A stretch of DNA of 64,000 nucleotides. It comes from a virus. Of the stretch, positions 9,001 to 28,953 are shown one piece after another. The translations under genes and the position numbers were made by a program. How positions within the stretch are numbered: position 1 is the stretch's first letter; each line of letters begins with the position of its first letter. The stretch is taken from the IMG/VR virus record IMGVR_UViG_3300042154_000876, positions 1 to 64,000 of that record; one strand, given 5' to 3'. The notes below the pieces were generated by a model. The model saw only the letters and a list, made by a program, of their open reading frames with translations. It was not told the origin of the DNA and did not search any database.

Positions 9001-12000
9001 GATCACCAAGAACGTTCCTACAATGCTTGGCCAGGATGTTGCCACTAGGTACATAATTTCCGCTAAGGATCTAGAAGACAAGTATGACGACGCAGTCCTA
9101 GCTCGAAGCATCGAAAACGGTTACGAGATCAATGGCCTACGCGTTCCTGCTAAGTCTACTGTAACTATTCCAGAGAACTATACCCCCTCTAAGCCTGGAG
9201 TTTGGCTAGGAAGCACCGAAGACGAGATTAATGCTCAGCTTGACCTATACGGAGCTACCAAGGCTGACTCTGCACCTAGCAGTGCCATGCTTAACGCTCT
9301 TAAGGGCCTAAACTCTGTTCTTAAGATCAGACAGTACGAGTCTACCCTTGAGGCCAACGACCTTGACGACTTCCTTCAGAGAGAAGTTCTTCGTGCTGAC
9401 CTAACACGTACCCGCCGTGCATTGTCGGGCGTTGCAGCGCAGCTTGCTGATCTGCTAGAGTCTAGCCCTAGCACTGCTGTAAAAGCCGACTCTGCCAAGA
9501 TCCTCCGAGGAGCTATCGAAGGTCTTACAGACCTACGCTCTGTTCTAAACCTAAGACGCACCAACGTGCTTACCAAGAAGGAAGTAGACAAGCGTCTATC
9601 CGACATAGCGATCGCTATTCTTCCTGGAGACGGATCGCCTAGCCCACTGGGCACCCTAAAGAACAAGACCCCGGAGGCCTTGGAAGTTCTAGCCCGTGCT
9701 CAGGCGGCAGTTGGATCTCTTATTGGCCTATACAAGCAGGGTGGATCTGCTCCGATAGACCAAGACGCTGTTGAAGAGTCTTCGTCCAGTAGAAAGCCTT
9801 CTATGAAGTTCTTCTACCCACCTACGTTTGCTGGCGAGGGCCTTGACCCACTACGCGGTATGAGCAACTACAACGATGTTATCCAGTTCCTAAAGAACAA
9901 CGACATCTATGTTCTCGATCTTGAAACAACTGGACTAACTGATCTAGATGACTTTGAAATCAAGAATGATCCTATCCAGATCGCTGTTACCAAAATCTCT
10001 GGCCTACAGGCTGTAGACTCTTTCACCACCTACATCAACCCTCAGTCTAAGATCAGTTCTTATACCCTAAAGAACGTTGGAGACGGTAAGGGTGGACGTG
10101 TCACCCAGGAGTTCCTATCTGGCTTCCCTACTAAGCGAGACACTATGGCTCAGCTTAAAGAGTTCATTCCAAATGGCGCTATTATTGCTGGACACAACTC
10201 GACTTTGTTCGACATGGAAGTTATCAACCGCACTATTGCTGAAGCTGGTCTAGAACCTCTAGAGCCTTCAGGCATGATTGATACTCTTGGTTTCGCTCGC
10301 TACATCATGCCTGAGTGGACGCCAGAGAACCCTGACGCTCCTTTCAAGATCAACGCCCGCGGTGAGCAGACCAAGTCCTTCTCTCTTGAAGCTTTGGTCA
10401 CCTACTTCGGTCTATCGAACAACGGCCGTCACGAAGCTGACGCCGACGTTAGCTCGACCGTTGAAGTATTCCAGAAGATGCTTGACCGAGCCTCTAGAGG
10501 TCTTGCTGTAGGCGGACGAGAGTTTAGCTACGACGCTTCTGACAACGACTGGAACTACGACGCCTATGTAGCCGCTGAAGAAGCATATAAGCAGGCATCT
10601 AGCGAGTACATCCTTGGCCGTGTTGGCGACATCCTATCCCTTGAGGGAATGAACCCTGAAGAGATTAACTCTCTCATTACCTCTATGATTAACAACATTC
10701 AATCTGGAGTAACCTCAGGGCAGGAACAGCCAAGAAGCGAAGCAAACGTCCCAGCAACTAACCCACTGCGGGACCTACCTGCTGGCTCTTACGTTCACGA
10801 CAACGCAACTGGCCGCGCTGGTATCTCTATGGGTATCGTTGGAAACCACGTTCTAGTTGACTTCCCTGCTGCCTCTATTCTGGCTAATGGGCTTCGCACG
10901 CTGGAGAAGGTTCTCCCGGAGTCCCTAGTTAACGCCACCCGCGACTTCCTAAGTGCTAACGGAGTCTATCTAGACTACGGCATGCAGGTAAAAAACCCAG
11001 ACCTACCTGGCGGCTACGGATATGTACTAAGCCTATCCGGCGACAAGGGTGGAAACATCTACGCCGGTTCTGCAGACTACGCAGCTCAGTTCCCAGCCAA
11101 GAGCCTAGAGGTGGTGCCTACAACTGTCGCAGACGATAAAGCCTCTGACAAGCAAGAGGCTCGAATCATCAACCTAGTTGATGAGGTAGTTTCTGCTGGA
11201 ATTATGGATAAGGCCATGGCCCTACCATTCCAGCGCGCCGCTGAGAACCACCTCTACGGTAAAAAGTCAGCTGGAGACGTTATTATGCGTCTTACCACGG
11301 CGCTAAACCAGTTTAGACAGCACGCTGCCAATAGCGACATCCAGGTTGAAGCCGGCGAGAATGCAGCCTCTCAGATCGAGGAAATGGCCGCGCCTAAGAA
11401 GCCAAAGGATACTAAAAAAATCGAGGACATCGAGTTTAGTAAGGCATTGGAGAAGGCGCTCAAGGAGCTTGACATACAGCCTACCCCTGAAGGCAGAAAC
11501 ATTATTGGTTCAGTTATCAATAACTTCTTCACCGCAGTTATGGCCCTTGCCGGTGTTGGTAAAACTACCAACCTACGCCTAACAGCTGAGGCTATTATGA
11601 GCCTCTTCCCTCAGATGAGAATCCTATACGCGGTATTCAACAAAGAAAACCAAATGGAAGCTTTGGAGAAGATGCCAGATAACACAGAGGCTAGAACCTC
11701 TGACTCTATCAGCGTTATGGCCAACGCCAACAATAAACTACGCGATAAGATGGACGCCTTATCTAAACAGGATGAACCTCACAACATGCCTGTTAACTTC
11801 TTCAGAGAAGCAGATATCGCTGATCTATTCGGTGTAAAGGATGTCACCCTATCTACAGGAAAAGATGTACCTCGCGAGCGCGTAGCCGGAATCGCATCTG
11901 CTGCCTTACGAGCATGGATTCTATCCGATTCTATGAAGATTGATGCCAGTACTATTGACGCAATCTCCAGCCAGTTGAGTGAGAAAGAGATGCCTCAGAC

Positions 12001-15000
12001 AGCCGAGGACTACCGACCATTTATCCGACTTGTTCAGATGATGTGGGACGATGTTATTTCTGACCACGACCAGGATCGACGCCAGCTAGTAGTCAACTTC
12101 AACCACCTATTCAAGAACTGGGCACTTACTCGCCCTGACCTGACTGAAGTAGATGGTTCTGGAAAGAGCATTCACGGTCTTAAAAATGTCCCTGACTTCC
12201 TTTTCCTAGACGAAGCTCAGGATATTAACCCAGTATTCCGAAAAGTGATCGAAGACCAGTATACCCTTCACAAAAACGGTATTGTTATGATTGCTGTTGG
12301 CGACAATAACCAGGCTATCTTTGGATTCCGCGGAGCAGAAGACGCTCTGAATATTGTAAAGCGAGACCTAACGCTACCTCTAACTAAGAGCTACCGAACT
12401 GGTCAGACCGTTCTAGATGCCGCTGCTAACAAGCTGCTAGCGATGCTAGGAGAGTCGTTAAGACTACAAGGTAAGGATGGTAACGGCACTAAGCTTGTTG
12501 ACAATATGTCGCGAGAGAGGATCGATCTAGCCCTATCTCGAGGAACCGCCGCGATTCTAAAAGAAGCGATTGTGGTCGAGGAGATGTTTGAGGGAGGTAG
12601 AATCGCTACCACCCTGAACTTCAAGCAAGAGCTACTAAACATGCTTAAAGCGATGACTTACCTACAGCGCGTGGACTACGTCAACTATGCCAACGCTGAG
12701 GCACGTAAGAATGATCCAAATGCCGCGCCGATATTGCCACCTAAAAGACCTACAATACCTGGGGCATTGCTGGGCCTAAACTGGGAAACCATGTATGAGC
12801 TTCTGTCTGAAGGTAAGGGTGACCAATCTATTCAGCAGATTTGGAATGTTATCCGCGGTCACGCTAGCAAAAACAAAATTAAAATCGGGCCAGCAATGTC
12901 TGACCTACTGAACAACATTGTTCCTAACCTTCGAGTAGTTAATCACGAGTTCCACCTTCCAGCCCAGCTAGATCCGATCGGGTCTCTCGGTGGAGGATTG
13001 GACTACGAGATTACAAAGGATAAGATTATTATCCGAGACGACCCATCCGCGGGCTTTAATGCTCGTAAGACGGCCATTAGCGGTGTCTACAATAACCGCA
13101 AGGTTCTCGAGGACTACGGGTTCTGGAACCCTAGCAAGGATCAGGCAACTGGACGATACGGTGGATTTGAGTGGGAAATCAACCTATATGACGATGGGCG
13201 TGATCAGTTGCAGGACCTTGTCAAGGGTCTTCGCGGTGAGGACGCCATGTTCCGCATTATGACTGGTCACACCTCAAAGGGTCTGGAAGCCGATAACGTC
13301 AAGATTCTAGATGACTGGCTAGACCTAACGCCGTTCCTACCTGGTGGAGATGCTGAAAAGCAGAACGAACTGCTAGAACTGTTCCGCTCGCGTGGTCCAG
13401 ACTTTGATCTTATGGAAGAGATCCGCTTGATGTATGTAGTCACTACTCGACCACGCACTGAACTTGATTTAGGTGGTTTGAAGTGGTTAAACAATCACTC
13501 ACCTGAGCAACTTAAGGCTGCTGTTGATGAGATCCAAAAGCGACTAGCTATGGGATTCGGCGCAGTTGAGGAGGGCGTAGAGGTTAAGTCTCCAGAAGAG
13601 ATTGAAGCCATCAAGAACCGACCAACTGGCGAAGATCTTTCTGGTCTACCTCCACGCACCGACTGGGAGGCAGAAAAAGCAGCAAAAGAGGAAAATAGTT
13701 GGAGGCTCAAGAACACTGAGGAGAGAACTAAGGAAGAGATTGGAGAAATCCCTAGGGATGGAAATCTTCCACTCAAGCCACGCTCCCGCGACAACGCTGA
13801 ACTAGCCAAGTTGAAGGAAGAAAGGCGAGAGCTCGTCAGTAAGATTGCTACCGCTAAGAGTAAGGGCAAGGAGCCTAGCAAGGCCACCGAGCAAAAGTTA
13901 GCGGATGTAAATCAGAAGATTTCTGACATTGAGAATGCTGACAGTGTTGAAGAGTTTTCATCTAAAAAACGTCCAAGCTCTCCTAACTACCAGGATGAGT
14001 TTGATCGAAAGGTTGATGGTCTAAAGGCCGCTATTGCAACCGCTAAGGACATTCTAAACCTTGTGCCTGAAGACCGAACCGGAGACTTCAAGGGCTATGC
14101 TGACACCAACATCGAGGAAACTATCGCTGGACTACAAGAGGACCTAAATGCTCTGCTTGACAACCCAGACATGCTGGAGCGTGATGACGAGGAAGACTAC
14201 CGCATTGCCGAGCGTCTACTGGCTAAGCTGAATGCAGATAAGATGGCTAAACTAGACATGGGCGATCTGATGGATGCTCGTCGCATTGTGAAGAACAAGA
14301 GCGACATCACCGGAACTGATCAGAGCTTTGTCTATGGCACTACCCCACCTGTGTACCTCAACCGAGTAATGCTAGACGCACTAGAGAAGATGAAGGACCA
14401 CCTGTATCGTAAGCTGAAGCACGACGAGAAGCTAGACTTCGCTCCTTATGTTTCGGACCAGGTCGAAGAGTCATCTTCTCCGGTAGAGAATATCTCTCCA
14501 GAGATGGAAAAGAAGCTCTACAACATTGTTGAAGAGGCTGCTAAGTTCTACAGCGACCGCTTGATGAACTTCAATGACCCAGGTGCGACCGAGGCAAAGA
14601 AGTACGTTGTATCGCGAGGATTCGGTGCTGCCAACGCCGAGACCTTTAAGATTGGATACTCTTCGAAGAACTGGGCTGACCTATATCAGCACCTACGTCG
14701 CAAGGGATTCTCTGAAGAAGAGATCTTAGCCTCGGGACTAGTCAACAGAAGCGAAAACAACGGACGACTATTTGATGCCTTGCGCAACAGACTAGTCTTC
14801 CCCGTTAGCAACGACAAGGGCCAAGTGGTTGGTTTTGTTGGACGCTCGATTGACCCTGAAGAGCCAATCCGCTACATGAGAACCAAGGGTACCCCGATCT
14901 TCCAGAAGTCGAGCACCTTGTTTGGTCTAGATCAGGCTAGGGATGCAATCGCTGAGTCAGGCGAGATGGTTGTTGTTGAAGGTCAGTTTGACGTTCTAGC

Positions 15001-15514
15001 AATGCACGCTGCCGGCATCAAGAATGCTATTGCTGCCTCGGGAACCGCATTCGGTGAGGGCCACATGGACCTATTCAACCAGATTGTTGGTGACAAGGAA
15101 AACAAGAGCGTAGTGTTTGCTTTCGACCCAGACGAAGCCGGAATTAAAGCAGCTGGAAAAGCGTACATGATGTTGACCCAGTCCTACTTTGATGTCGCGC
15201 CTTACATTGTCTCTGATGAATCTGGACTAGACCCTTCTGACATTTACTCAAAGGATAACGAAAACGGTCTTAAGACTCTGATGGATAACAAGCGCCCAAT
15301 GGCTGAAGTTCTGATCGAAAGACTTCTGTCTAGTGGTAGAGAGCTTAGCGATATCCGCGACGCTATCATTGCAATCCTGATGAATGTCCACGACACTAAC
15401 CTACAGACCCAGCTAGTTCAGCGCTTCGGCCCTCAGCTTGGTGGAGACATGGGCGAGCTGTTTGCAGAGGTTAGAATGTATGATCCTAAGCGGAACGCTA
15501 AATACAACATCTAG
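6023..15514 (+). CDS. Giant polyvalent protein A (3163 aa): N-terminal module, DEDDh exonuclease, UvrD-like SF1 helicase, DnaG primase core
   Basis: Uninterrupted ORF from a GTG start 2 nt after the upstream stop. Catalytic motifs are listed in the domain features. Confidence 0.85.
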   Translation: MSKLIDQFDSNFENEGGIRHAIVDIIESRRAEIPAIRMVEEETLFQVAERALESNTDLEPDVRYFAALREVTNFITFATEGAISDIVTKHADLLPASHPNSKESAVMTASAQRMLRAEWLAADLRITDENVRSIVAAVYASNPLSVDYAYHLSRLESLEEGQVPADLLIQPLLAFGDPYAGKNSFWHRSMRAKKQRRDDEGQFAEMGGGYRFYVRDLRGRVFSVVGKVAGIPENDPLGIDIEVIGVEGIRDGIYTIPAAAGHSFKAILPEHAVSKRIRISGDNLNAIDLSSLTRKELPTSWFATKGSNDKTDLDNKVKADRFFATGDGYIANLYNKPDEELGKRIAEAQNKFGALVVSDQGTDTLNPDKPVYELISTKRGQPEVVGYSQDWAALQKFASDEDENYPEAENEPLAVEESAAKKPKEAPAAAPVAPESMDELVPDLPSYNPSENVPATWYDNGDNTFYSIDGKYVAKFGPTDIAADYVYSYDPSSGQEGLLPTGATVSDAFAIYNTDNGSAVGGVSFDWNGVSDAIDSVDQVEEMASPTKLDPENLDPDRAKYIEPDANVGGRAGANDPISDAQKRSIYAAIGKHEVAGGIADIWDEMVANDWQGYTFANAMTLLIKINESPERPGGWVKPAQIYHRKAMRDSLRNRDVPEEAKKILLESYKSMGEAEIKAQITLVNTFPAITPDPRATLDGDRKPIVAPVKYEPGTVNAETARIPKLQPANAYPNKYPPRAQGVDRDGKAFYPLLNDLKGAFSSKKVSEDMVILFDDMLTRPSVYSYKDYGAFMDVLNKLEPTEKKLATTATRALVDTMIGMSKDVPGDLQEKLKGRRMMDHDEINALITELVPYVPEYEKIAGRAKTAQETAESKNLSSATPKYLGTDLTAAQSAPKPMQLVMLESLIENKDFSDPAAKKDLDTLIAEHRTMPYPLIQSYIKEFQQLPYKAQFQPNMLHTTISREDGGPTPRMLRSLERSRIKGLIGDEAWNEITKNVPTMLGQDVATRYIISAKDLEDKYDDAVLARSIENGYEINGLRVPAKSTVTIPENYTPSKPGVWLGSTEDEINAQLDLYGATKADSAPSSAMLNALKGLNSVLKIRQYESTLEANDLDDFLQREVLRADLTRTRRALSGVAAQLADLLESSPSTAVKADSAKILRGAIEGLTDLRSVLNLRRTNVLTKKEVDKRLSDIAIAILPGDGSPSPLGTLKNKTPEALEVLARAQAAVGSLIGLYKQGGSAPIDQDAVEESSSSRKPSMKFFYPPTFAGEGLDPLRGMSNYNDVIQFLKNNDIYVLDLETTGLTDLDDFEIKNDPIQIAVTKISGLQAVDSFTTYINPQSKISSYTLKNVGDGKGGRVTQEFLSGFPTKRDTMAQLKEFIPNGAIIAGHNSTLFDMEVINRTIAEAGLEPLEPSGMIDTLGFARYIMPEWTPENPDAPFKINARGEQTKSFSLEALVTYFGLSNNGRHEADADVSSTVEVFQKMLDRASRGLAVGGREFSYDASDNDWNYDAYVAAEEAYKQASSEYILGRVGDILSLEGMNPEEINSLITSMINNIQSGVTSGQEQPRSEANVPATNPLRDLPAGSYVHDNATGRAGISMGIVGNHVLVDFPAASILANGLRTLEKVLPESLVNATRDFLSANGVYLDYGMQVKNPDLPGGYGYVLSLSGDKGGNIYAGSADYAAQFPAKSLEVVPTTVADDKASDKQEARIINLVDEVVSAGIMDKAMALPFQRAAENHLYGKKSAGDVIMRLTTALNQFRQHAANSDIQVEAGENAASQIEEMAAPKKPKDTKKIEDIEFSKALEKALKELDIQPTPEGRNIIGSVINNFFTAVMALAGVGKTTNLRLTAEAIMSLFPQMRILYAVFNKENQMEALEKMPDNTEARTSDSISVMANANNKLRDKMDALSKQDEPHNMPVNFFREADIADLFGVKDVTLSTGKDVPRERVAGIASAALRAWILSDSMKIDASTIDAISSQLSEKEMPQTAEDYRPFIRLVQMMWDDVISDHDQDRRQLVVNFNHLFKNWALTRPDLTEVDGSGKSIHGLKNVPDFLFLDEAQDINPVFRKVIEDQYTLHKNGIVMIAVGDNNQAIFGFRGAEDALNIVKRDLTLPLTKSYRTGQTVLDAAANKLLAMLGESLRLQGKDGNGTKLVDNMSRERIDLALSRGTAAILKEAIVVEEMFEGGRIATTLNFKQELLNMLKAMTYLQRVDYVNYANAEARKNDPNAAPILPPKRPTIPGALLGLNWETMYELLSEGKGDQSIQQIWNVIRGHASKNKIKIGPAMSDLLNNIVPNLRVVNHEFHLPAQLDPIGSLGGGLDYEITKDKIIIRDDPSAGFNARKTAISGVYNNRKVLEDYGFWNPSKDQATGRYGGFEWEINLYDDGRDQLQDLVKGLRGEDAMFRIMTGHTSKGLEADNVKILDDWLDLTPFLPGGDAEKQNELLELFRSRGPDFDLMEEIRLMYVVTTRPRTELDLGGLKWLNNHSPEQLKAAVDEIQKRLAMGFGAVEEGVEVKSPEEIEAIKNRPTGEDLSGLPPRTDWEAEKAAKEENSWRLKNTEERTKEEIGEIPRDGNLPLKPRSRDNAELAKLKEERRELVSKIATAKSKGKEPSKATEQKLADVNQKISDIENADSVEEFSSKKRPSSPNYQDEFDRKVDGLKAAIATAKDILNLVPEDRTGDFKGYADTNIEETIAGLQEDLNALLDNPDMLERDDEEDYRIAERLLAKLNADKMAKLDMGDLMDARRIVKNKSDITGTDQSFVYGTTPPVYLNRVMLDALEKMKDHLYRKLKHDEKLDFAPYVSDQVEESSSPVENISPEMEKKLYNIVEEAAKFYSDRLMNFNDPGATEAKKYVVSRGFGAANAETFKIGYSSKNWADLYQHLRRKGFSEEEILASGLVNRSENNGRLFDALRNRLVFPVSNDKGQVVGFVGRSIDPEEPIRYMRTKGTPIFQKSSTLFGLDQARDAIAESGEMVVVEGQFDVLAMHAAGIKNAIAASGTAFGEGHMDLFNQIVGDKENKSVVFAFDPDEAGIKAAGKAYMMLTQSYFDVAPYIVSDESGLDPSDIYSKDNENGLKTLMDNKRPMAEVLIERLLSSGRELSDIRDAIIAILMNVHDTNLQTQLVQRFGPQLGGDMGELFAEVRMYDPKRNAKYNI
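9900..10490 (+). other. DEDDh (DnaQ-like) 3'-5' exonuclease domain in giant A
   Basis: ExoI LDLETTG (D at 9917), ExoII GHNSTLFD, IDTL, ExoIII HEADADV. Confidence 0.85.
11480..13480 (+). other. UvrD/Rep-like SF1A helicase domain in giant A
   Basis: ALAGVGKTT, VFNKE, LDEAQD, VGDNNQAIFGFRG, LTKSYR, TGHTSKGLE, MYVVTTR. Confidence 0.85.
14500..15330 (+). other. DnaG-type primase catalytic core (Toprim_N + TOPRIM) in giant A, no zinc-binding domain
   Basis: YVVSRG..FKIGYS, DALRNRLVFP..GFVGR, VVEGQFDV, GTAF, FDPDEAG, DPSD. No CHC2 zinc finger upstream. Confidence 0.85.
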
Positions 15515-15564
15515 CCCCTCAGGTTTATTGGTATACTTGTAAAAGACTAATCAATCGCGATAGT

Positions 15565-15619
15565 TACCCCGTTAATTTGACAACTGCTAATTGACGGGGT
15601 ATTATCAAGGTGTTACGTT
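15565..15619 (+). promoter_or_regulatory. Tandem sigmaA-like promoters overlapped by a 13-bp inverted repeat
   Basis: TTGACA (15577-82) -17 nt- TATTAT (15600-05), and TTGACG (15591-96) -17 nt- TACGTT (15614-19). Inverted repeat TACCCCGTTAATT (15565-77) / AATTGACGGGGTA (15589-601). Confidence 0.7.
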
Positions 15620-15634
15620 TCTATAAGGACCAGT

Positions 15635-15898
15635 ATGAAAATCTTTGTTGACACCCCCGAGGGCGGAAGCCTCGTTGAGATTGAAGTCTCCACACTAGAA
15701 GATGACAGGCTAAACACGCTTGCCGCATCTGGATCTAAAGAAGCGCGCGACGAGGTTAAAAAGCGTACCGGTATGGATCCATATAAGCCTGTTTCTGAGC
15801 ACACACCCGAAGACGTCGAATACTACATGGAGTGGTTAAAAAATAACGACTCTGAAAAATACAATAAAATTGTAGGTAGCGATAAGGACGTTGAGTAG
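15635..15898 (+). CDS. Small acidic protein, paralog of the next gene
   Basis: 87 aa with an AAGGA RBS. Shares GG..L.D..LN.L...G..EAR.....RTG.DP.K......PED......W...N..EK..K with 15903..16187. Confidence 0.75.
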   Translation: MKIFVDTPEGGSLVEIEVSTLEDDRLNTLAASGSKEARDEVKKRTGMDPYKPVSEHTPEDVEYYMEWLKNNDSEKYNKIVGSDKDVE

Positions 15899-15902
15899 GA
15901 CT

Positions 15903-16187
15903 ATGGAAGACAACTACGAAGAATACCAAGTAGACATGCATGTCATCACTGCTAGTGGTGGCAAGGATTTGAAGTTCCAGCTTAAGGACCTTACCGACGA
16001 GGAGCTTAATCAGCTCTATGAAGAGACTGGACTAGAAGAAGCCCGCCTCGCTTACCGCGAGCGTACCGGTGATGATCCAGCTAAAAACCTATGGATCTAT
16101 GGACCAGAAGACTTTGCGTGGTTCCAGGACTGGTGTGACCGCAACCCAGAAAAGTTTGAGAAGTTGCGAGCCCAGTATGACGTTTAG
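15903..16187 (+). CDS. Small acidic protein, paralog of the previous gene
   Basis: Likely ATG at 15903 (MEDNYEEY); the ORF track uses TTG 15891. Aligns with the upstream ORF. Its stop overlaps the start of giant B. Confidence 0.75.
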   Translation: MEDNYEEYQVDMHVITASGGKDLKFQLKDLTDEELNQLYEETGLEEARLAYRERTGDDPAKNLWIYGPEDFAWFQDWCDRNPEKFEKLRAQYDV

Positions 16188-22100: not shown

Positions 22101-25100
22101 CCTAAAGACGATTGACCCGCGCAACCCGTCTACGGCTAAACAACACGGTGCAGTTCGTAAAGAAGGCTTTGGAGAATACCTAGACGATCTAGGGCTTTCC
22201 CGTGACCACCAAAATGCACTGTTCGACCAGATTAAGCAAATGACTCGTGGTGAAGCCGCCAGGTTTATCAGCACTTTCATCGAAGCCAATCCGCTACCTA
22301 AGCCTAGCGCTAAGCCTTCCATTCAAAATAGAGTACTAGATCTGAATCAGGTCACTAAAAACATCAAGAACCTTGAAAGACTTAAGTCTCAACCGCTTCC
22401 TTCCGCTCTTAGGGATATGGGCACCGTCCCGACCGATACTGAAGAAAAAATACAACACTTTAACAGGGAATTCTCTGACTTCCTAAAGAAAAAGTACCCG
22501 GACCTAACTCTTGGTGAAATCTGGTCATCTAGAAACAGCAATATCGATGTCGAGAAAGATTTTAATTACTTCTCTGATTTATATCAAAAAACTATGTCTC
22601 TGCCCGATAGTAAGGTTTTTGGTATTGGTAACGCCACTATAACCGCAAAAGACGGCATCCTAAGCAAGCGAGACTTGGCAATAGTGTCTAATGCCTTAGA
22701 AGTACTACAAGAGAGATTCTCTCTAGGCGAGACCCCTATTGATGTCCGCTATATGCCTCAAGAAGAATTAGACCGTCTCGCTGAAAAGAAGAATGTAACA
22801 GGGTCTGCATACATCGATGAAGACGGTGCGCACATAATTATTTCTGAGCGGACTCTTGGTGTCTATGAGAAAGACGGTAGGAGCGGTAAGACTGGGTCAG
22901 TGTCCGCTCACTTGGCTACTGTGATCCATGAGTACGGTCACCTAGTTCATGCACTACTACTAGGGTCTAATTTCACAGAAAAAGAAAAAGCAGACCTGGC
23001 TAAAGAGTTCCAACGTAGATTCAAAAAAACTAGGGTCACTGATTACGGCGAAACTAGTACTGCTGAAAAGTTTGCCGAACTGTTCTATGACATGGAATAC
23101 AGCAGAATCGAAGGAACTGAACCTGCAGTTCCAGAGTTTAGCGAGTTTATGGAGTCCATTAAGGGTCGGAAGGCTGCTATTAAGCCTTCCCTGCTTAACA
23201 GGATGGGGATCAAGAAGCCTCAGGCTCGACAAATGCCCCCTGAGAACACCAAGCCAGAGTTTGATGGAGCCACCAAGCTTTCTGGTGCTAACCTAGCCGC
23301 GTTTGAGGGATCCTCAGACAGCCTGCGCGGTAGTGACCAAGAGGCTGGCTACATCCCGGACCCTAGTGATCAAAAAGCTTTTAATGAGTTTAGACTTCAG
23401 ATAAGTCTTAACCCTGGCGATCTAGTGTCTGAGGCGCAAGCGCGTATTAGATTTAAGAAGGAAATCGAGAAGGCTAAAAAAGACGCCCGACGCTACGAAG
23501 TACTTAAAGTTGAAGGCACAAACTCCTACATCCGCTACAAGAACGGAGACGCTTCTCCAGAAGCCATCCAGCAGACGATTGACCAGCTGCGTGACCTGGA
23601 AGACTTCAACGTTGCTGGCGGCATTTCTCAGGTTGTAACCTTAGCCAAGCGCGAAACCTTCTCTGTTGGAAGACTATTTGCCACAACGCAGGGGACCGAA
23701 GAGGAGATCCATGGATACTCTCTTCTAGATTCGGATAAGGGTATTGGTCACATTGTTGTTGACCCTGACTTAGTCTCCGAGTCCCCTGGCTCTGTACCTG
23801 GAATCGCTGTAGGACAATACTACGCTAATGGTGGCGTTGACGCTCAGAATATGTTGAAACGCACCTTGGTGCACGAGTATGCGCACAACTGGGCTAAAGT
23901 GATTCTAGGACACCGCCAACAAGACAGCGCAAGATTTGATGAGTTTGTTCGCAGTGTAGTTCAGAGAATCCAAACTTCGGGTGGGAGAAGTGTCCACCCA
24001 ATCTCGGAGATTGCCGAGGGTGGAGACGGTGAAAGCTTCGCTGAGTTCTTTACGGCCGCCTTCTTCCAGATTGTTGAAGGCCGCATGCTCCCTACTAAGG
24101 GATCTCCGCTTGATCAGTTTATTCAGTTCTTTGCTAAATATGCTGGAGCCAACGTTGAGCCAATCATTAAGAACATCAGCCCTATCGTTCAGGTTGAAGA
24201 GTCGTCTTCTGGCGGACAACGACTAAAGTTCCCTAAGAACCATGAGGGAGCTGGGTCAGAGAATGTCTACCTAGAGTACAACCGACGCAGAGAGTTCTAC
24301 CGAAATGGGCTAGATCCTTACGGACGCCCACTAAGCGATGCCCGTGCGGCAATGATTCGCGAATACAGCAGCTACATCGATAAACTAGAGTCTGCGTACC
24401 AGTCCACCATGCGCGCTGAAGACTTCGACGTTATGACTTCAGCTATGGCGGCCCTAAAACGAGTCTATGATTCGATGTTCTTTGCCTACGCTAAGAATAA
24501 CTCCAGATTCAATGTAGACACTATTGGTGAGAACATTGAAGCTAATGAACAAAGCTTCCGTAGCTGGACAGCACCTACTTCCCCTCTATTCTTACCTGAA
24601 TCTGAGGGACCTTTCAAGAATGAGATAACCACCGGACGCTATACAGACGTCGACGGTATTTCCTATCCGCTTGTATACATCTCTTCGACTAAGGCAGATG
24701 GTCGCACCTATACAGCTACAGTTGCTCTTGACCCAGAGAACACCGACTTTGACCTTGCCACTGCCAATATGGACACCCTAATTGAGGCATCTGTTGGAAA
24801 GATGATAACCATATCGGACAAAGAAAAGACTAGCCAGATTCTTGACTACATCTCGGTTGACGGTGACCTACGTCACAGGGGCATAGCCACCTCTCTTCTA
24901 TCCTTCACTAGAAGCAACACAACTAAGAAGGTTTTGCACAAGGGTAAGTCTGCCCCGGATGTTTCAGCTTGGGCCCAGTCGGTAGATAGTTCTGAAAAGT
25001 CCTACGAATCCGCTCCTCGTGCGTTTGACGATGCTTCTCACGTTGCTCGACACAACCGCAACGCTATCAACCTAATCTCTGATCGCGAGCCGCCTCAGGA

Positions 25101-28100
25101 GATCGACACGTCTTCAGAGACCTTAGAGGCCGAGGCGCTACACTATGCGGGGGAAAACTACGGAAACTTCTATCACCCTAACTTGCAGGACTACATGTCT
25201 AAGCAGGGTGGCGGACTTGGTGTCTACAACTCTACAGTTGGTTATGTCTCAGCTGAGACTCTCAGTTCGATGCGCGGCAATGAGCCTAAAGATCCGGACA
25301 GCGTGGCTCGCAAGGTTGAAGACCTACAGGACGGCGACGGATTCGACCAACCGGTAAGCGTCGTCTATAACCCTCGCACCGGTGAAGCTTATGTAGCCGA
25401 CGGTAACCACCGCGTCCAGGCTTCGCTAGACGCTGGCGTTGCTTATGTACCTACAAGAGTCTTTATCATGGATGTTCCTCCTGCACAGGAGAACCCACAG
25501 ATTAAGAAGTTGGAACGCGATGGCGGTCTACCTCTACCTGAGGGCGCAGATGAAGTTCACCCATACTTTGTCTTCAATAAAGAAGATCTAGTTAATGGAA
25601 AAGACCTATCTGACCCTAGCGTTGTTGAAGAAATGGCTTCTAACGTTGTTGTTTGGTCTGGTCGCGGTAAGGCTTCCGAGCGCAACCGCTCCGGAAGGTA
25701 TGACCCAGACCCTAACAACATCTTTGAGCAGCTTGCCCCAGGCGAATACGTTATGGACAAGAAGACCAAAAAGATTTATCAGGTATACAGCCAAGACTTT
25801 ACTACCGAAGTAGGCCAAGACGGTGTAGAAAGAGCCGTATTCACCGGGAAGATTGTTGTCCGAGAGTTTGAAGGCAACTTAGATAACCTATCTAGAGTAA
25901 GAATCTCGACGCAGTTTGGCGATAACAATATCCGCTACGCTCAGGGTGGACAATCCTCTGCCGACGATTCATATAATGACGCTCGCTCATATATTGACGA
26001 GATTCGCGACCCAGCGGACTTTGAGAATGTTACTGACTCGTTTATAAAGCTCAGTGACCAGCCTATCCTTATCAGCGATACGATGTACGTTGTTCAGACC
26101 GAGACCGGTATCAAGGGTCGAATCTCTAAGTTTGTCTCTCCTGGAGTAGTTAGACTTGATGTTCTAAAGGGATATAACGAGGACGGCGAACCTCTCTATG
26201 ATCAGATAGAGTCCCCGATAACCCAGCTTCTACCTATCCAGAACCAGCAGCAGGTCCCTAATGGACAGCCTGCTATGGAGCATGCCCCTGATATGCAAAT
26301 ATCTAACTCTACCTGGGACTCGATCAACACCTTGTCCTCTACCCTGTTGAAGTGGGGCTACCTATCAGAAGATAAGTACAAGGCTATTCAGACCCTAGTT
26401 CACGGTAAGTTTATTACCCAAAGCGGTGCTCTGGACCTTGAGCGTTCGCTCAGAAACCACGACGTAGTTAGACGAGCAAAGATTCGTGGCGTCGCAGTGA
26501 AGTCACCTGCCACTGGAGAACCTGTTGCACAGGCGCCTGTACAGCAAGCTGCCCCGTCTGCCCCTGCCGCGCCTTCAGTTGGCCAAGGCGAGGCCGGAGG
26601 TCGCTCATTTGAGCAGCTCCTAGAAATGAAGCGTGCTCGTAAGAAGGCAGATGCCGGGCTATCTGTAGAAGAGTTTGCATCTCCTGTCACAAAGATTAAG
26701 GTAACTAAGAACCCTCCTACCCAAAGCCAGATTCTAGAAGTAGAGCGTCTTCTTTCTGAAGACGGTGCGGTAACCCCGCAGCGTGCATTTGATATTCTAT
26801 CTTCACTACCTACTCTAAATGCAGAAGCCACCGAAGCTGTACTAGAAGAGATCCGAGCAGATGTTCTCAACAAGAGGATTTCTAAGGATGAAAGCATCAC
26901 TGGTCTTGTAGTTCCTAAGGGCTTTAATAGATCCAAAATCTCTGGATACCAGCCAGCCGTTGAGGAATCATCTACCGGCTTTGAGATCGATAGAGATGCG
27001 GAAGAGCCTAATGAAGACGGAGAGGTTAGCCCAGGAGCGAAGCCAGAAGAAGAAGGTCCTAAGATGTCGTTCAATGCTCAACAGAAGTCAGCTATTGACT
27101 CTGTAGTTAGCAGTGAAGGCGGCCTATTCTTTATCACTGGTGGTGCTGGTACTGGTAAGACCACTATTAAGAAGGAAATCGACAAGCGCGAGAAGGCCAA
27201 AAATAGAAGGACTATGACCATTGCCCCTACGGGTAAGGCAGCCCTTCAGGCAGAGGGAGCTACCATCCACTCTACGTTCAAGATTCCAGTAGGCCCTTTA
27301 ACCGATTTTAGCCCGTCCGAGACTTACAACAAGAATATGGGTACTGCCAAGGGCCGTAAATCTATGGCTGCTTTGCGCACGGCAGACACCATCTTCATTG
27401 ATGAAGTTTCTATGGTTCGAGCAGATCTGATGGATGCTATGGACAGGATGCTTAGGGTTGTCAAGGGAAACATGTCTGAGCCTTTTGGTGGAGCTAAGAT
27501 TGTTATGCTTGGAGACTTGGCTCAGCTTCCTCCAGTAGGTATTGACTCTAGCCCTGAAAACCAGGGACCTCGCCAGCGATTCCAAGAGACTTATGCTGAT
27601 GACTACTTCCTAAGTGCTAACTCATGGGCATCTTCGGCGTTTGAGGTTCACAACTTGACTGAGTCTATGCGTCAAAGCGCAGAGGATGATGCCTGGTTCG
27701 AGCAGTTCCTAAGGGAGAGGGCTCGATTCGCTGAGGTGACTCAGGAAGACATGGAGAAGCTGTGGGAGATTAGCGAAAAAAACCGCAAGCGTGATGCTGA
27801 AGAGGGTGTCACATCCGAGCCTATCCACCTGGTGTCTACAAATGCTGCCGCAGACGAGATCAACAAGAAAAAGTTTGCTGAACTTGAGGGTGAAGCAGTT
27901 AAATTTACTGCTACCATTGACGCTCCAGAAGGCTCTGACATTAAGCCGTTTGTTCGAAATGGCGGTCTACCTAAAGAGGAAATGGAATACAAGATCGGTG
28001 AGCCGGTAATGTTTATCAAGAACGATGACGCACAGCAGCGCAAATCTGCTGGAGGCAACCTTCCGAACGAGTCCAGATGGGTAAACGGAAGTCAGGGCGT

Positions 28101-28953
28101 AATCACAAGATTTGAATATGCTGAAGGCGAAGATGGCCAGACCCCTATTGCTATCTATGTAAAGATTGGCGACAAGGAGCACCGAGTAGTTCCTGCCACA
28201 TGGGAAGATGTAGAATACGGCGTATCTACCAAGATTGAAGAAGAGAAGAACATCGTTGAGGGACCTACTCAAGAAGTTTTGTCTACCTATACTCAGATTC
28301 CTTTGATGCCAGGATGGGCTATGACTACCCACAAGTCTCAGGGAGCCACTATGGACTCAGCTGTGGTCGACTATTCGATTAAGTACTCTGATAATGGAGA
28401 TATTCTCACTCAAAATAGCCCTTTTGCTGCTGGACAGGTCTATGTAGCACTTAGCCGACTACGTAGCTCGAATGGTCTCTACTTGACTAGGAAGCTAAAT
28501 AAAAATGACTTTATTAGAATCGAACGTAGCGTTACCGATTTCTTCAAGAATGTTGATGCTCAGACAGCCGCTAACCAGGTCTCCGAAAGTTCCGCTCCAA
28601 AGAAGTTTGACCCGCTAAAAGGATACATTTCTGAAGTAGATCTTGCTTCAGCCCTAGACAGCGGGGAACTCACCGGACCAGCTGGCCAGAACCTTACGGA
28701 CTACCAGTCCACCGCTATCAAGAACAAACTCCGTCTGATGCGTGAAAATCCTAATAGTGCTGATCGTTATAGAGAAGAAATTGCTAAGCTAATGAACTCT
28801 TGGTTTGGTGTCGAGGAGCCTGGAGAAGAGATCCCTGCTGTAGCTGCCCCCATTGAGATCCGCATGGACAACTTCCGCGACCCGTCGGAACGTCAGGCCA
28901 CAATAGACCTACTTACTAAGAGTGGTATTCCCTACACTTTGAAGTACGATTAA
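16177..28953 (+). CDS. Giant polyvalent protein B (~4258 aa): N-terminal module, KOW/SH3-like repeats with Thr-rich linkers, DEDDh exonuclease, two HEXXH zincins, GNAT, ParB, PIF1-like helicase
   Basis: Uninterrupted ORF. ATG 16177 (MTFSPLFF), coupled to the upstream stop, is preferred over 16069. Motifs are listed in the domain features. Confidence 0.85.
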   Translation: MTFSPLFFEDPEEPIVAAALKNGKEWGYWADMQLRDPGGERGGWFIEMGGLNLFNGMGKDGKVRAYKGKYIGPSPLGQGYGRFLVEGGDGVDPGIYHVNVSNIDSVKGVLSEEYLRSLGRDVPAQKEGIVDLSKTRIDPITEQDLQDANIEPDKPKNLKKAANDRGQSAKKLKDLKDGDILYDEGNKRFGEVVSTVDKDGNFSPWVKWEDNQISQIPNADPETETAVWAAPAPEVDESAAPKKTVKGRDLKVGDVIRAWDENRTITAIEPGRGGERYFIFDTPDEGEDGPDGKFININEDVELGREEAPVAPAAPVAAEKTKSNKVSASEVKKGDSVVINGETYTVSKKSNKKADGVVIGHKIEFRAEDGSTFEEEFLSDDTLDIPAAETATKEEKKTPRGVLTSFVKNMQPGDVLIAGKDDKRQEVLFVSAEPIPPVDNNDIRKRYNITVQRADGGLETIAVDATNGIPQLAETNAKGKTEKVNRKDQLKVVPSAPATTTTKTTRTTTKTAGDEAGTTTTTTPRVRAPEVIPTTPMSTNPGDTGEVVRGVNYEIMPDGRIKFSRGRLKKGSRSYDLITKVLPGEITRSGNGKAFAFFEKPEGGDYGNWFVRFEPIKDSKKDLAKQFLDSLRAGMAKEKVESSEETGSSFSGAKNTKGSITDAASYEVDENGTVKISGLTEEQVDLVVQAMYTVQGTTPLDRPGSVSTKVDSDKDEDRAAVLKAVSDALGGTPAATTTTTTTTPDFDSLPKTKADPEAARKAGFTVDNVKPVDIQVGDYIISPVGYWTKVVGEPSIIPDPRNPGEIAWAIPTENYKGERFTQDGLGDLNLRIDRVRGPNHVDTPETADEAFDKESAPFPMDTLRDLKEGIYAKVDGMWKKITKVGKPQIDPSVDTESVVIEFEDGTKKRVDERDGLTLVRKVPEGEATSTATTTTEGLTTDQRLAKLLFLVKGSGSEDAAWNASIMGDARRSLEAAGIDENDFLDYAEKSGASDLRQPDLDKLIEKYKADKGSTTTTATTTEESDKPTDEQRKTIDDLIAQIGDETNFTSKIVTAMLDSLTKESADMAIDMLKAAIANTTAPTTTTAPAQSVFTPGQIDSVNRRINLLTPEQQAKVKEAMESATPKTAKDIMSKIINTLDNAEIISRIRKGMPVDDILARRKTDTVGANLLFDLDRSPKEIAQRLATYKPTVNLDGTPIADAQQTTTTVSGDDTKSVSSLISDVIDSLAKDLQTKFGALKYRYSSKTPQNAEQAEKDHEIYLEYLSTVVPAVMQALKERLDSQTAAGNPDAQKNYDDAVSKLKQELWGQNRGAVYTSEAEKLVGSDRTKEMSDEANKALNDLLAGVKKPEKQVTTETTTKDTFGKIGTSGNLTGNVDYSIDKFGQIALTNAPEDFDARMAESRGLIIVTDNGKKSIVLTKNNDENRAAALNLIKERLEGPAPVTTKVETQTEVAQDVVTGQERPEGGVSKKISELNVGDRLYDEETESMATVVGVYEDPDRAGRIVLTIRFDDGREDSASYKKSYVVEAYPSPEAPAATTTTAEDVVGGEDADTSKTEAEVVEDSQVIVEQGESTTAEPGSTVLEEPDAEAVEPVEPKRKPRGPRKPRKVNLSDVSDEEREAFIRIFDALENFNRVEEEYGGKKYDSKWYIDEKDRKFDNKDVEELASQNTKGIGEDLGIQLMDSTTDAYEPGAFSSTRQPTPGAFTGRVARMVEGKTKAETRNILKGLKVSWFDTETTGISNFDGDPTNNDVVQVGIVNTQNGEVLERLNIYINPGVEDGVRLGKWATNNLVKDAVGEDGQPILGPDGKPTTEPITNEWLSEQMSIADAVQQIMDFMGRDPILGGQNVPFDLQVLQRMLDKAGVRGYRIGGTIDSKDLSEEFLPKYNEYEGTDGPKRFDKERNKFVPTSSLGYVAEFLGFGTTRWHSADADAEDAWKLASATMDRAASEDPTGTSDLMNQSAMRSRYTERMAKFLKTIDPRNPSTAKQHGAVRKEGFGEYLDDLGLSRDHQNALFDQIKQMTRGEAARFISTFIEANPLPKPSAKPSIQNRVLDLNQVTKNIKNLERLKSQPLPSALRDMGTVPTDTEEKIQHFNREFSDFLKKKYPDLTLGEIWSSRNSNIDVEKDFNYFSDLYQKTMSLPDSKVFGIGNATITAKDGILSKRDLAIVSNALEVLQERFSLGETPIDVRYMPQEELDRLAEKKNVTGSAYIDEDGAHIIISERTLGVYEKDGRSGKTGSVSAHLATVIHEYGHLVHALLLGSNFTEKEKADLAKEFQRRFKKTRVTDYGETSTAEKFAELFYDMEYSRIEGTEPAVPEFSEFMESIKGRKAAIKPSLLNRMGIKKPQARQMPPENTKPEFDGATKLSGANLAAFEGSSDSLRGSDQEAGYIPDPSDQKAFNEFRLQISLNPGDLVSEAQARIRFKKEIEKAKKDARRYEVLKVEGTNSYIRYKNGDASPEAIQQTIDQLRDLEDFNVAGGISQVVTLAKRETFSVGRLFATTQGTEEEIHGYSLLDSDKGIGHIVVDPDLVSESPGSVPGIAVGQYYANGGVDAQNMLKRTLVHEYAHNWAKVILGHRQQDSARFDEFVRSVVQRIQTSGGRSVHPISEIAEGGDGESFAEFFTAAFFQIVEGRMLPTKGSPLDQFIQFFAKYAGANVEPIIKNISPIVQVEESSSGGQRLKFPKNHEGAGSENVYLEYNRRREFYRNGLDPYGRPLSDARAAMIREYSSYIDKLESAYQSTMRAEDFDVMTSAMAALKRVYDSMFFAYAKNNSRFNVDTIGENIEANEQSFRSWTAPTSPLFLPESEGPFKNEITTGRYTDVDGISYPLVYISSTKADGRTYTATVALDPENTDFDLATANMDTLIEASVGKMITISDKEKTSQILDYISVDGDLRHRGIATSLLSFTRSNTTKKVLHKGKSAPDVSAWAQSVDSSEKSYESAPRAFDDASHVARHNRNAINLISDREPPQEIDTSSETLEAEALHYAGENYGNFYHPNLQDYMSKQGGGLGVYNSTVGYVSAETLSSMRGNEPKDPDSVARKVEDLQDGDGFDQPVSVVYNPRTGEAYVADGNHRVQASLDAGVAYVPTRVFIMDVPPAQENPQIKKLERDGGLPLPEGADEVHPYFVFNKEDLVNGKDLSDPSVVEEMASNVVVWSGRGKASERNRSGRYDPDPNNIFEQLAPGEYVMDKKTKKIYQVYSQDFTTEVGQDGVERAVFTGKIVVREFEGNLDNLSRVRISTQFGDNNIRYAQGGQSSADDSYNDARSYIDEIRDPADFENVTDSFIKLSDQPILISDTMYVVQTETGIKGRISKFVSPGVVRLDVLKGYNEDGEPLYDQIESPITQLLPIQNQQQVPNGQPAMEHAPDMQISNSTWDSINTLSSTLLKWGYLSEDKYKAIQTLVHGKFITQSGALDLERSLRNHDVVRRAKIRGVAVKSPATGEPVAQAPVQQAAPSAPAAPSVGQGEAGGRSFEQLLEMKRARKKADAGLSVEEFASPVTKIKVTKNPPTQSQILEVERLLSEDGAVTPQRAFDILSSLPTLNAEATEAVLEEIRADVLNKRISKDESITGLVVPKGFNRSKISGYQPAVEESSTGFEIDRDAEEPNEDGEVSPGAKPEEEGPKMSFNAQQKSAIDSVVSSEGGLFFITGGAGTGKTTIKKEIDKREKAKNRRTMTIAPTGKAALQAEGATIHSTFKIPVGPLTDFSPSETYNKNMGTAKGRKSMAALRTADTIFIDEVSMVRADLMDAMDRMLRVVKGNMSEPFGGAKIVMLGDLAQLPPVGIDSSPENQGPRQRFQETYADDYFLSANSWASSAFEVHNLTESMRQSAEDDAWFEQFLRERARFAEVTQEDMEKLWEISEKNRKRDAEEGVTSEPIHLVSTNAAADEINKKKFAELEGEAVKFTATIDAPEGSDIKPFVRNGGLPKEEMEYKIGEPVMFIKNDDAQQRKSAGGNLPNESRWVNGSQGVITRFEYAEGEDGQTPIAIYVKIGDKEHRVVPATWEDVEYGVSTKIEEEKNIVEGPTQEVLSTYTQIPLMPGWAMTTHKSQGATMDSAVVDYSIKYSDNGDILTQNSPFAAGQVYVALSRLRSSNGLYLTRKLNKNDFIRIERSVTDFFKNVDAQTAANQVSESSAPKKFDPLKGYISEVDLASALDSGELTGPAGQNLTDYQSTAIKNKLRLMRENPNSADRYREEIAKLMNSWFGVEEPGEEIPAVAAPIEIRMDNFRDPSERQATIDLLTKSGIPYTLKYD
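21360..22010 (+). other. DEDDh exonuclease domain in giant B
   Basis: WFDTETTG (D at 21379), GQNVPFD, IDSK, WHSADADA. Confidence 0.85.
22700..23100 (+). other. Zincin-like metallopeptidase domain 1 in giant B
   Basis: TVIHEYGHLVH (H at 22927) followed by TDYGETSTAEKFAELF. Confidence 0.7.
23560..24070 (+). other. Zincin-like metallopeptidase domain 2 in giant B
   Basis: TLVHEYAHNW (H at 23872) followed by ESFAEFF. Confidence 0.65.
24690..24990 (+). other. GNAT acetyltransferase-like domain in giant B
   Basis: ILDYISVDGDLRHRGIATSLL matches the acetyl-CoA binding motif A (V..xxRxxGxA). Confidence 0.6.
25240..25475 (+). other. ParB/Srx-like domain in giant B
   Basis: GFDQPVSVVY..AYVADGNHRVQAS..GVAYVP, with DGNHR at 25399. 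Confidence 0.75.
27065..28500 (+). other. PIF1/RecD-like SF1B helicase domain in giant B
   Basis: ITGGAGTGKT, APTGKAA, TIHS, IDEVSM, GDLAQLPPV, LTESMRQ, QIPLMPGWAMTTHKSQG, GQVYVALSR. Confidence 0.9.

Follow-up and report, generated by a model that had tools for sequence, protein, structure and literature searches.

Two cysteine-free giant reading frames between the portal and protease genes of a putative lake-water actinophage may encode head-cargo polyproteins of DNA-processing enzymes

In phages T4 and phiKZ, the internal proteins and Alt of the former and the inner-body proteins of the latter are a cargo encoded among the head genes, which is targeted through its N-terminus, cut at short motifs by the morphogenetic protease and ejected with the DNA. 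In both phages cargo and shell share one cleavage motif, and T4 Alt is an ADP-ribosyltransferase. Polyvalent proteins are multidomain proteins of phages and conjugative elements that have been proposed to be delivered together with DNA and to be cut into units (Iyer, Burroughs, Anand, de Souza and Aravind 2017, PMC5512222). According to that survey, Toprim/DnaG primases are confined to conjugative elements ("never by phages"), and UvrD occurs only in a few actinomycete polyvalent proteins, in contexts that resemble conjugative transfer. The same paper describes the virion RNA polymerase of phage N4, a packaged and injected enzyme of 3500 aa, and cites TraC1 of RP4 as a conjugative primase that is transferred with DNA. 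Here we analyze the initial 64 kb of an IMG/VR virus contig of 75.6 kb in total, which is estimated to be about half complete (record IMGVR_UViG_3300042154_000876, positions 1 to 64,000; this whole stretch is referred to below as the window). Between its portal gene and its protease gene lie two giant open reading frames (ORFs), giant A and giant B, that contain exonuclease, helicase and primase domains. We propose that they are head-cargo polyproteins that are packaged, cut and injected, and we give this full chain of events roughly even chances of being correct.

The two ORFs are located as follows.

6023 to 15514, plus strand: giant ORF A, 3163 aa, no cysteine (Cys), a single open frame
16177 to 28953, plus strand: giant ORF B, 4258 aa, no Cys, within an open frame of 4294 codons that begins at 16069

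The start of giant B is likely to be the ATG at 16177, because the stop codon of a small preceding ORF overlaps it and because homology with relatives begins there. A first-pass annotation of this DNA had described an enzyme kit as a set of genes lying at 9770-28596, with some 22 kb devoted to it. The enzymes exist, but none of them is a gene of its own: all belong to two giant ORFs, and the actual unit is 6023-28953, of which the two ORFs occupy 22.3 kb, in agreement with the earlier estimate of the space involved. From its N-terminus, giant A consists of an N-terminal module, about 900 aa of unassigned sequence, a DEDDh exonuclease, a UvrD-like helicase, a spacer and a DnaG-type primase core. 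Giant B consists of an N-terminal module, a zone of repeats and poly-threonine, a DEDDh exonuclease, two zincin-like domains, a segment with GNAT-like and ParB-like parts, two unassigned segments and finally a PIF1-like helicase. The repeat zone of giant B (residues ~274-1700, at ~16890-21160) is made of repeated small non-catalytic domains and helical repeats with poly-threonine joints (TTTT occurs 14 times), and shows weak matches to KOW/SH3-like domains and to "Phage_attach".

Five of the seven domains that had been claimed are firmly identified.

9890 to 10495, plus strand: DEDDh 3'-5' exonuclease A, giant A residues 1290-1491 (Pfam RNase_T, E 1.3e-14)
11375 to 13510, plus strand: UvrD-like SF1A helicase, giant A residues 1785-2496 (Pfam UvrD-helicase PF00580, E 1.9e-10; phrog_1967, E 3.5e-44)
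14477 to 15451, plus strand: DnaG-type primase RNA-polymerase/Toprim core, giant A residues 2819-3143 (DNAG_N PF08275, E 3e-33; Toprim_2/4)
21298 to 22200, plus strand: DEDDh 3'-5' exonuclease B, giant B residues ~1744-2044 (RNase_T, E 2.1e-8; phrog_192, E 8e-18)
27049 to 28572, plus strand: PIF1/RecD-like SF1B helicase, giant B residues 3661-4168 (Pfam PIF1 PF05970, E 4e-31; phrog_325, E 8e-75)

Both exonucleases present Exo I (DxE), Exo II (D) and Exo III (Hx4D) in order, with conservation of 97-100%. The motifs of exonuclease A are in register with those of the PolC exonuclease 2p1j, and its D, E, D, D, H and D residues are 100% conserved in 27 homologues. Exonuclease B is a paralogue of A (BLASTP E 1e-19, with every motif aligned) and is conserved in 39 homologues. 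For the UvrD-like domain, 26 homologues preserve Walker A, DEAQD and motif III; UvrD_C (PF13361) scores 23.3 bits, slightly below its cut-off of 25.6, and the sole match to a solved structure is weak (FBH1, E 8e-9). For the primase core the best solved match is DnaG of M. tuberculosis (5w33, E 4e-44), and the EG..D and DxD motifs are conserved. No CHC2 zinc ribbon accompanies this core: giant A has no Cys, and the match to 5w33 begins at the RNA-polymerase domain. Finally, the PIF1 domain aligns with solved structures of PIF1 helicases (E 1e-45), every motif being in register, and is conserved in 11 homologues. Overall, the catalytic residues of the firm domains are 92-100% conserved across 11-39 homologues, which were drawn from clusters at no more than 50% identity. 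Since catalytic residues are conserved in such divergent homologues, the enzyme domains appear to be under selection to work. The two DEDDh nucleases, the UvrD (SF1A) and PIF1 (SF1B) helicases and the TOPRIM primase of the first-pass annotation are thus borne out by Pfam matches and, for the exonuclease, PIF1 and DnaG motifs, by the alignment of catalytic residues with solved structures that it had proposed as a check.

The remaining recognizable parts of giant B are identified with less certainty.

22369 to 24201, plus strand: two tandem zincin-like domains, with HEYGH at nt 22927 and HEYAH at nt 23872, each followed by E-x-F-A-E
24616 to 24921, plus strand: GNAT-like stretch with a motif-A-like RxRG[IL]A (Acetyltransf_7, E 0.21)
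25231 to 25467, plus strand: ParB/sulfiredoxin (Srx)-like domain, DGNHR invariant in 6 homologues (alignment A1)

The zincin-like domains have only weak Pfam matches (SprT-like, E 0.005; Reprolysin_3, E 0.04) and fall outside the Pfam MPTase-PolyVal family, PF18818 giving no match to them at E <= 1; HEYGH is found in all five B-type relatives. Judged by these motifs, they are a candidate processing peptidase. The GNAT assignment that had been made for the next stretch could not be confirmed. The motif-A-like sequence, conserved in four of six homologues, has E values of only 0.2-0.8 (0.36-0.78 for PDB profiles of aminoglycoside acetyltransferases), and a search of the protein Atlas with this part returned only unrelated families with low recognition. 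The AlphaFold model of the GNAT/ParB segment is poor (pLDDT 46), including the GNAT-like part; the ParB-like part, at pLDDT 62-77, is the best modelled. With this part, the top 40 Foldseek matches are all Srx, ParB, Noc or KorB (E from 5e-3, TM 0.6 on the target). The earlier designation as ParB is therefore supported by the predicted fold and by DGNHR but not by Pfam, since ParB_N (PF02195) has no match in this segment of giant B, and we regard a ParB/Srx identity as modestly supported. An IMG/VR scan yielded no close relatives of the GNAT/ParB segment, and likewise none for representative P0027.

A module of about 140 aa heads both giants in every lineage.

6530 to 6958, plus strand: N-terminal module of giant A, residues ~170-312 (alignment A2, with an invariant G-x-F-x-E-M-G)
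16222 to 16650, plus strand: N-terminal module of giant B (alignment A2; pairwise E with giant A 2e-4)

Comparison of giant A with the B-type giant of a relative gives E 4e-8. A profile of the module detects 423 clusters at E <= 1e-3 and 251 at E <= 1e-10, counted as representatives at 50% identity. In the best 150 of the 423 the module is always N-terminal, beginning either within ~35 residues of the N-terminus (B-type) or, in most cases, at about residue 170-200 (A-type), and the proteins that bear it have a median length of 2348 aa, with 94 of the 150 longer than 2000 aa. The modelled fold is a small SH3/Tudor-like beta-barrel (AlphaFold pLDDT 66). The module also occurs in cultured Microbacterium phages (Big4, Zooman, Pumpernickel, A3Wally and Cece), in the protein encoded after the portal, which in Big4 is gp74.

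In the window the giants are enclosed by the following genes.

2156 to 3934, plus strand: portal protein, 592 aa (phrog_776, E 7e-102), the upstream border of the slot
3948 to 6020, plus strand: Dps/ferritin and DUF5824 fusion, 690 aa, 13 Cys (Pfam Ferritin, E 2.5e-13; DUF5824, E 7e-9)
29047 to 33549, plus strand: head maturation protease fusion, 1500 aa (phrog_859, E 1e-91; phrog_18402, E 3e-57), the downstream border
33681 to 35720, plus strand: major capsid protein, 679 aa, no Cys (phrog_777, E 7e-82), with tail genes downstream

The identification of the portal on one side and of the protease and capsid genes on the other upholds the earlier placement of the enzymes between portal and protease. 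A portal homologue lies no more than 10 kb upstream in 60 of 63 further IMG/VR loci found with the module profile; in most of these related loci a DUF5824 protein, corresponding to that part of the fusion in the window, sits between portal and giant, and a protease was seen downstream in four. A constant N-terminus joined to a variable payload in a fixed position among the head-assembly genes suggests that the module may serve as a loading or anchoring element.

Inspection of the sequence between the domains revealed a recurrent hexapeptide, [VI][ED][ES][SMFL][AS]x, in short VEE[SMFL][AS], at the following positions.

7265, 7640, 9770, 11375, 13946 and 14462, plus strand: starts of the linker motif in giant A
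16879, 21163, 24193, 25624, 26665, 26959 and 28579, plus strand: starts of the linker motif in giant B

The motif occurs 12 times in the two giants, compared with an expectation of 0.2 and a maximum of 4 in 2000 shuffles; the thirteenth site (VSESSA at 28579) is a looser variant, and together the 13 sites span 7265 to 28596. A slightly stricter form is present 11 times in the giants and once in all of the other six-frame sequence of the window. The sites flank the catalytic domains. In giant A they precede exonuclease A (residue 1250), the UvrD-like helicase (1785) and the primase core (2814), and in giant B they are located ahead of exonuclease B (1699), on either side of the GNAT/ParB segment (2709 and 3186) and on both sides of the PIF1-like helicase (3631 and 4171). 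The closest relative has kept all of the sites. In more distant relatives different motifs recur at matching positions: IEDM[SA] in L005, [IL]D[KR]M[AS] in L007 and G002, PIVD in G003 and PI[ILM]K[KR] in L014. In G002, which comprises 39.8 kb, [IL]D[KR]M[AS] is found 14 times in any frame and every occurrence is in one of its two giants. Because the motif is lineage-specific, is found in the two giants of a genome alike and lies between domains, it probably represents the cut site of a single protease that acts in trans and co-evolves with it. As for the identity of this protease, the motif is absent from the shell proteins, unlike the situation in T4 and phiKZ, and the head protease may for this reason not be the cutter; the zincin-like domains of giant B are an equally good candidate.

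Two further observations concern these sites. At least two Lys or Arg residues lie within the eight residues that follow 8 of the 13 (for example KKPK, RKPS and KKRP), and G002 shows the same. Cleavage at the motif, if it happens, would give pieces that start with basic tails. The possibility that the motif marks internal translation starts was considered and rejected, since its fourth residue is often S or F and no ribosome-binding site is present at a workable distance.

A third property shared by the two giants is their amino acid composition. Their 7421 residues include no Cys. In the remaining virion proteins of the window there are 28 Cys in 8811 residues (0.32%), and the replication enzymes have 0.4-1.3%. 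At a frequency of 0.32% about 24 Cys would be expected in the giants, and the probability of finding none is about 6e-11. The tape measure protein (1330 aa) and the capsid protein (679 aa) likewise have no Cys. This property is not peculiar to the window: 106 module-bearing proteins of at least 1500 aa contain 69 Cys in 315,593 residues (0.02%), and 71 of the 106 contain none. At the positions where the aligned DnaG and PIF1 structures have Cys, the giants have other residues. Proteins that function extracellularly or that pass unfolded through narrow channels typically avoid Cys, and its absence here fits storage in the virion followed by threading out through the tail, as for the tape measure.

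It was informative to compare the payloads of related loci. Sixteen IMG/VR contigs encode a relative of the giant A N-terminus and, where enough sequence exists, the gene order is portal, a protein of ~450-750 aa and a giant of ~2900-3500 aa. A second, B-type giant of 3999-5861 aa was present in all five of the related contigs that were searched in full; these B-type giants match the C-terminal 2250 aa of giant B and share its N-terminal region. The set of enzymes is largely kept, with shuffling. Four lineages have the primase in giant A, contig G003 has it in giant B, and three lack it. In G003 (L032) the DnaG core occupies residues 2116-2388 of a B-type giant of 5861 aa and is missing from the A-type giant, which implies that domains move between the two polyproteins. 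G004 and G005 have an ADP-ribosyltransferase (Pfam ADPrib_exo_Tox, E 2e-8) in place of the GNAT-like stretch, directly ahead of the ParB-like domain; in G004 it comprises residues 3111-3271 of the 4716-aa giant L033, and it is found also in L034. This class of domain is characteristic of the effectors that phages inject (Iyer et al. 2017, PMC5512222). Actinomycetia phage DSL-LC01 and Microbacterium phage Big4 keep the slot, the module and a giant of 1756-3289 aa, in which no recognizable enzyme domains were detected. Among the best 150 module-bearing representatives, only 38 share any enzyme domain of the window. Seventeen of the others (sampled among P0004-P0153) include four with a PI3/PI4-kinase-like domain, two with zeta toxin and two with NUDIX, and most of the length of the sampled giants has no Pfam match. 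A survey of relatives for variable domain content had been suggested at the outset as a check on the proposal, and it shows a payload that varies at a fixed locus. The occurrence of ADP-ribosyltransferases, kinases, zeta toxin and NUDIX among these payloads favors a role in conflict for the family as a whole.

The setting of the giants in the genome bears on these interpretations. WhiB is encoded just past the end of the window, and the nearest named relatives are DSL-LC01 and a group of ~190-kb Microbacterium phages; WhiB and these relatives point to an actinobacterial host, and the DNA recurs in metagenomes of lake water; the source is taken to be an uncultured actinophage of such water. A replication arm lies on the minus strand at 54.5-63.4 kb and encodes PolA with an exonuclease, a SNF2 helicase, a PD-(D/E)XK nuclease, AAA_24 and DUF669, in accord with the separate arm that had been placed at 54-63 kb, and a PrimPol-D5 primase-helicase of 874 aa is encoded just beyond the window, in the stretch L020 (contig positions 64001-75583). 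Since a full conventional replication set is present elsewhere, the enzymes of the giants appear to be extra. L020 encodes, in addition to WhiB, a dNMP kinase, a cytidylyltransferase and a serine recombinase with Resolvase and Recombinase domains, whose 217-aa frame stops early inside the Recombinase domain.

Some features of the neighboring genes may be recorded here. The Dps/ferritin-DUF5824 fusion (3948-6020) has Cys-rich parts, its 13 Cys standing in contrast to the giants. Its pieces match three DSL-LC01 proteins: the first carries the annotation "high potential iron-sulfur protein", the second is a DUF5824 protein, and the third, matched at its C-terminus, is the product of a protease gene. 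This indicates domain shuffling among the proteins of the portal-protease slot. The protease fusion has its protease domain at approximately nt 31411-32652 and a coiled-coil tail; it matches Pfam Peptidase_S78 weakly and is 44-52% identical to the products of the protease genes of DSL-LC01 and the Microbacterium phages. The first 200 residues of the capsid protein (33681-34280) form a long, very acidic stretch that precedes the conserved fold, and the G002 homologue is alike. A VEE sequence in this N-terminus was considered as an instance of the same cut site and rejected as compositional, since the same acidity occurs in G002 together with a different motif.

The region between the two giants contains the following features.

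15577 to 15605, plus strand: sigma-70-type promoter-like site TTGACA-17-TATTAT, the sole 11/12 match in the first 40 kb
15635 to 15898 and 15891 to 16187, plus strand: small acidic ORFs of 87 and 98 aa, paralogues of each other (BLASTP E 8e-11)

The promoter-like site is inside an imperfect inverted repeat, CCCCGTTAATT ... AATTGACGGGG, the coordinates of this observation being 15577-15605 and 15560-15600. It is kept in the closest relative only and was on this ground rejected as a conserved feature. The second of the small ORFs and the start of giant B share 11 nt, and neither small ORF has family matches.

These observations can be accommodated by the following scheme. The N-terminal beta-barrel module would bring each giant into the assembling head beside the portal. 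There a protease, either the adjoining head maturation protease or the zincin domains of giant B, would cut the giants at the linker motif. Cutting would free the two DEDDh exonucleases, the UvrD-like and PIF1-like helicases, the DnaG-type core, the ParB/Srx-like domain and the unassigned pieces. Free of Cys, these pieces could unfold and thread out through the tail with the DNA and, once in the cell, act on DNA ahead of phage gene expression. What they would do there is the least certain step, and two readings may be offered. First, the primase core, the opposed helicases and the exonucleases, which are of the proofreading type, might prepare the incoming genome by unwinding and trimming it, and prime it. 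Second, the set of SF1A helicase, SF1B helicase and nuclease might behave like an end-processing machine that works against, or in place of, host enzymes and defenses.

Several observations weigh against this scheme. Its first formulation invoked MuF-type minor head proteins, and this framing must be abandoned: a search of the entire contig for MuF (PF04233) at E <= 1 gave nothing, nor did the Pfam scans, and MPTase-PolyVal (PF18818) has no match on the contig at the same limit. The linker motif is not present in the capsid protein, the portal, the Dps fusion or the protease fusion of the window, and the G002 motif is similarly absent from the G002 capsid and protease homologues. No recurrent linker motif was found in G004, G005, DSL-LC01 or Big4. 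The module appears to be a generic small-barrel fold that lacks a known loading function; searches with the model found nothing more specific than SH3/Tudor-like barrels (Foldseek E > 0.2; VIA Z ~5). Without its zinc ribbon the primase may have weak or altered activity. The promoter-like site upstream of giant B, close to a host-type consensus, could mean that this giant is expressed early or independently. Finally, at ~820 kDa per pair the giants would be a heavy load for a head.

Some of these points lead to a different explanation, in which the giants are never packaged and are instead cytoplasmic polyproteins for extra replication, recombination or repair, or for the processing of concatemers, that merely happen to be encoded in the head block. 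Every catalytic domain that we have identified is an ordinary enzyme of DNA metabolism, and the strong promoter-like site before giant B is of the host type. Moreover, a motif that is not common to the shell proteins need not tie processing to head maturation, and packaging itself is a step that we infer. Nevertheless, we consider this explanation less likely than the scheme above. A complete replication arm is already present, some 60 loci preserve the portal-protease position with payloads that differ, and the replacement by an ADP-ribosyltransferase suits effectors better than it suits replication. The strongest single argument against a purely cytoplasmic role is the near-total absence of Cys over 315,593 residues, which is not seen in the replication proteins of the window.

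It is also conceivable that the giants are packaged but act inside the head, as a scaffold or an inner-body-like core that organizes or maintains the packed DNA, with enzymes that are active during packaging. The N-terminal module and the position in the head-assembly block would be expected in this case as well, about 2900 residues are in non-catalytic regions with repeats and poly-Thr linkers, and the basic patches after 8 of the 13 motif sites could bind DNA. We judge this to be distinctly improbable, however, because the catalytic residues are strictly conserved and the head offers no evident supply of nucleotides or need for priming, because the ADP-ribosyltransferase, kinases, zeta toxin and NUDIX of the relatives target components of the cell, and because the lack of Cys fits passage through a narrow channel. 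That the frames are artefacts of mis-assembly or chimerism, or decayed genes read through, deserves almost no credence even for a metagenome contig that is only about half complete, given frames of 3163 and 4294 codons without a stop, homologous giants with conserved catalytic residues in many contigs, and lake-water metagenome contigs from four independent studies that cover 25-30 of 30 bins with no indels and 2 SNPs.

If the giants are packaged and injected as proposed, the phage would deliver two exonucleases, a primase and a pair of helicases with opposite polarity as ready-made proteins, and work on the DNA could start ahead of all phage gene expression, carried out by part of a machine for DNA replication and end processing. 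This would extend the set of proteins that phages are known to inject, which so far consists mainly of RNA polymerases, anti-restriction proteins and ADP-ribosyltransferases. In a broader form, which we hold more tentatively than the proposal for the two giants and rate at somewhat less than an even chance, the module-bearing proteins would constitute a large, undescribed class of head cargo: Cys-free polyproteins of 2000-5800 aa, addressed by the module, cut according to a lineage-specific "linker code" and carrying interchangeable enzymes that actinophages of freshwater and soil inject. The module, with its 423 clusters, provides a simple sequence handle for hundreds of candidate cargo proteins in metagenomes; the linker motifs and the absence of Cys yield testable predictions about processing and passage through the tail; and the presence of the module in cultured Microbacterium phages makes the loading hypothesis testable at the bench. 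In the literature we found no paper that describes the module, the linker motif or these giants and no virion proteomics of the related Microbacterium phages, and the paper on DSL-LC01 does not discuss its giant gene.

Comparison with the known systems is instructive. Like the cargo of T4 and phiKZ, the giants are encoded among head genes, but their motif is confined to the giants themselves, their N-terminal element is a folded module of ~140 aa rather than a short peptide, and their payload consists of DNA-processing enzymes. The N4 virion RNA polymerase resembles the proposed giants as a giant enzyme carried in the head that acts at once on phage DNA; it is, however, a single enzyme that is packaged uncut, whereas the locus described here encodes two multi-enzyme polyproteins with apparent cut sites and no RNA polymerase. 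RecBCD, AddAB and AdnAB join motors of the SF1A (UvrD-like) and SF1B (RecD/PIF1-like) kinds to a nuclease. Their nucleases are of the PD-(D/E)XK type, while those of the giants are DEDDh, and in the giants the parts are split over two polyproteins. The primase of the ColIb plasmid, Sog, is transferred with DNA during conjugation. As proposed for the giants, in conjugative primases such as Sog and TraC1 a DnaG-type Toprim primase enters with the DNA and starts synthesis in the new cell; the conjugative enzymes work on single-stranded DNA that is moved by type IV secretion, whereas the giants belong to a phage with double-stranded DNA and would take a putative route through the tail.

The closest likeness is to the polyvalent proteins, in which many unrelated enzymatic domains are also joined in one huge polypeptide and which, in phages, are encoded beside head genes. 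Polyvalent proteins have 2-15 unrelated domains; giant A has at least three catalytic domains, and giant B has at least two firm ones together with its zincin-, ParB- and GNAT-like parts. Phage polyvalent proteins are encoded by genes lying among those for late head or virion proteins, and the giants lie between the portal and the protease and major capsid genes. ParB-like, GNAT, ADP-ribosyltransferase, kinase and helicase domains recur among polyvalent proteins. The phage versions are usually anchored by a MuF head-morphogenesis domain, and an MPTase zincin peptidase serves for self-processing; no match to either was found on this contig. The giants differ from the polyvalent proteins also in possessing another N-terminal module and a repeated, lineage-specific linker motif that is apparently used for processing, as well as PIF1 and two DEDDh exonucleases. 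They depart from the published survey (PMC5512222) in that a DnaG core and UvrD are found in head-module proteins of phages, in several lineages; among GenBank phages we found no DnaG in the head module, the nearest matches being ordinary replication primases with no more than 37% identity. As a whole, the giants are best regarded as a variant of the polyvalent-protein theme with three features that we did not find described: the family of N-terminal modules, the lineage-specific motif and the absence of Cys throughout the family.

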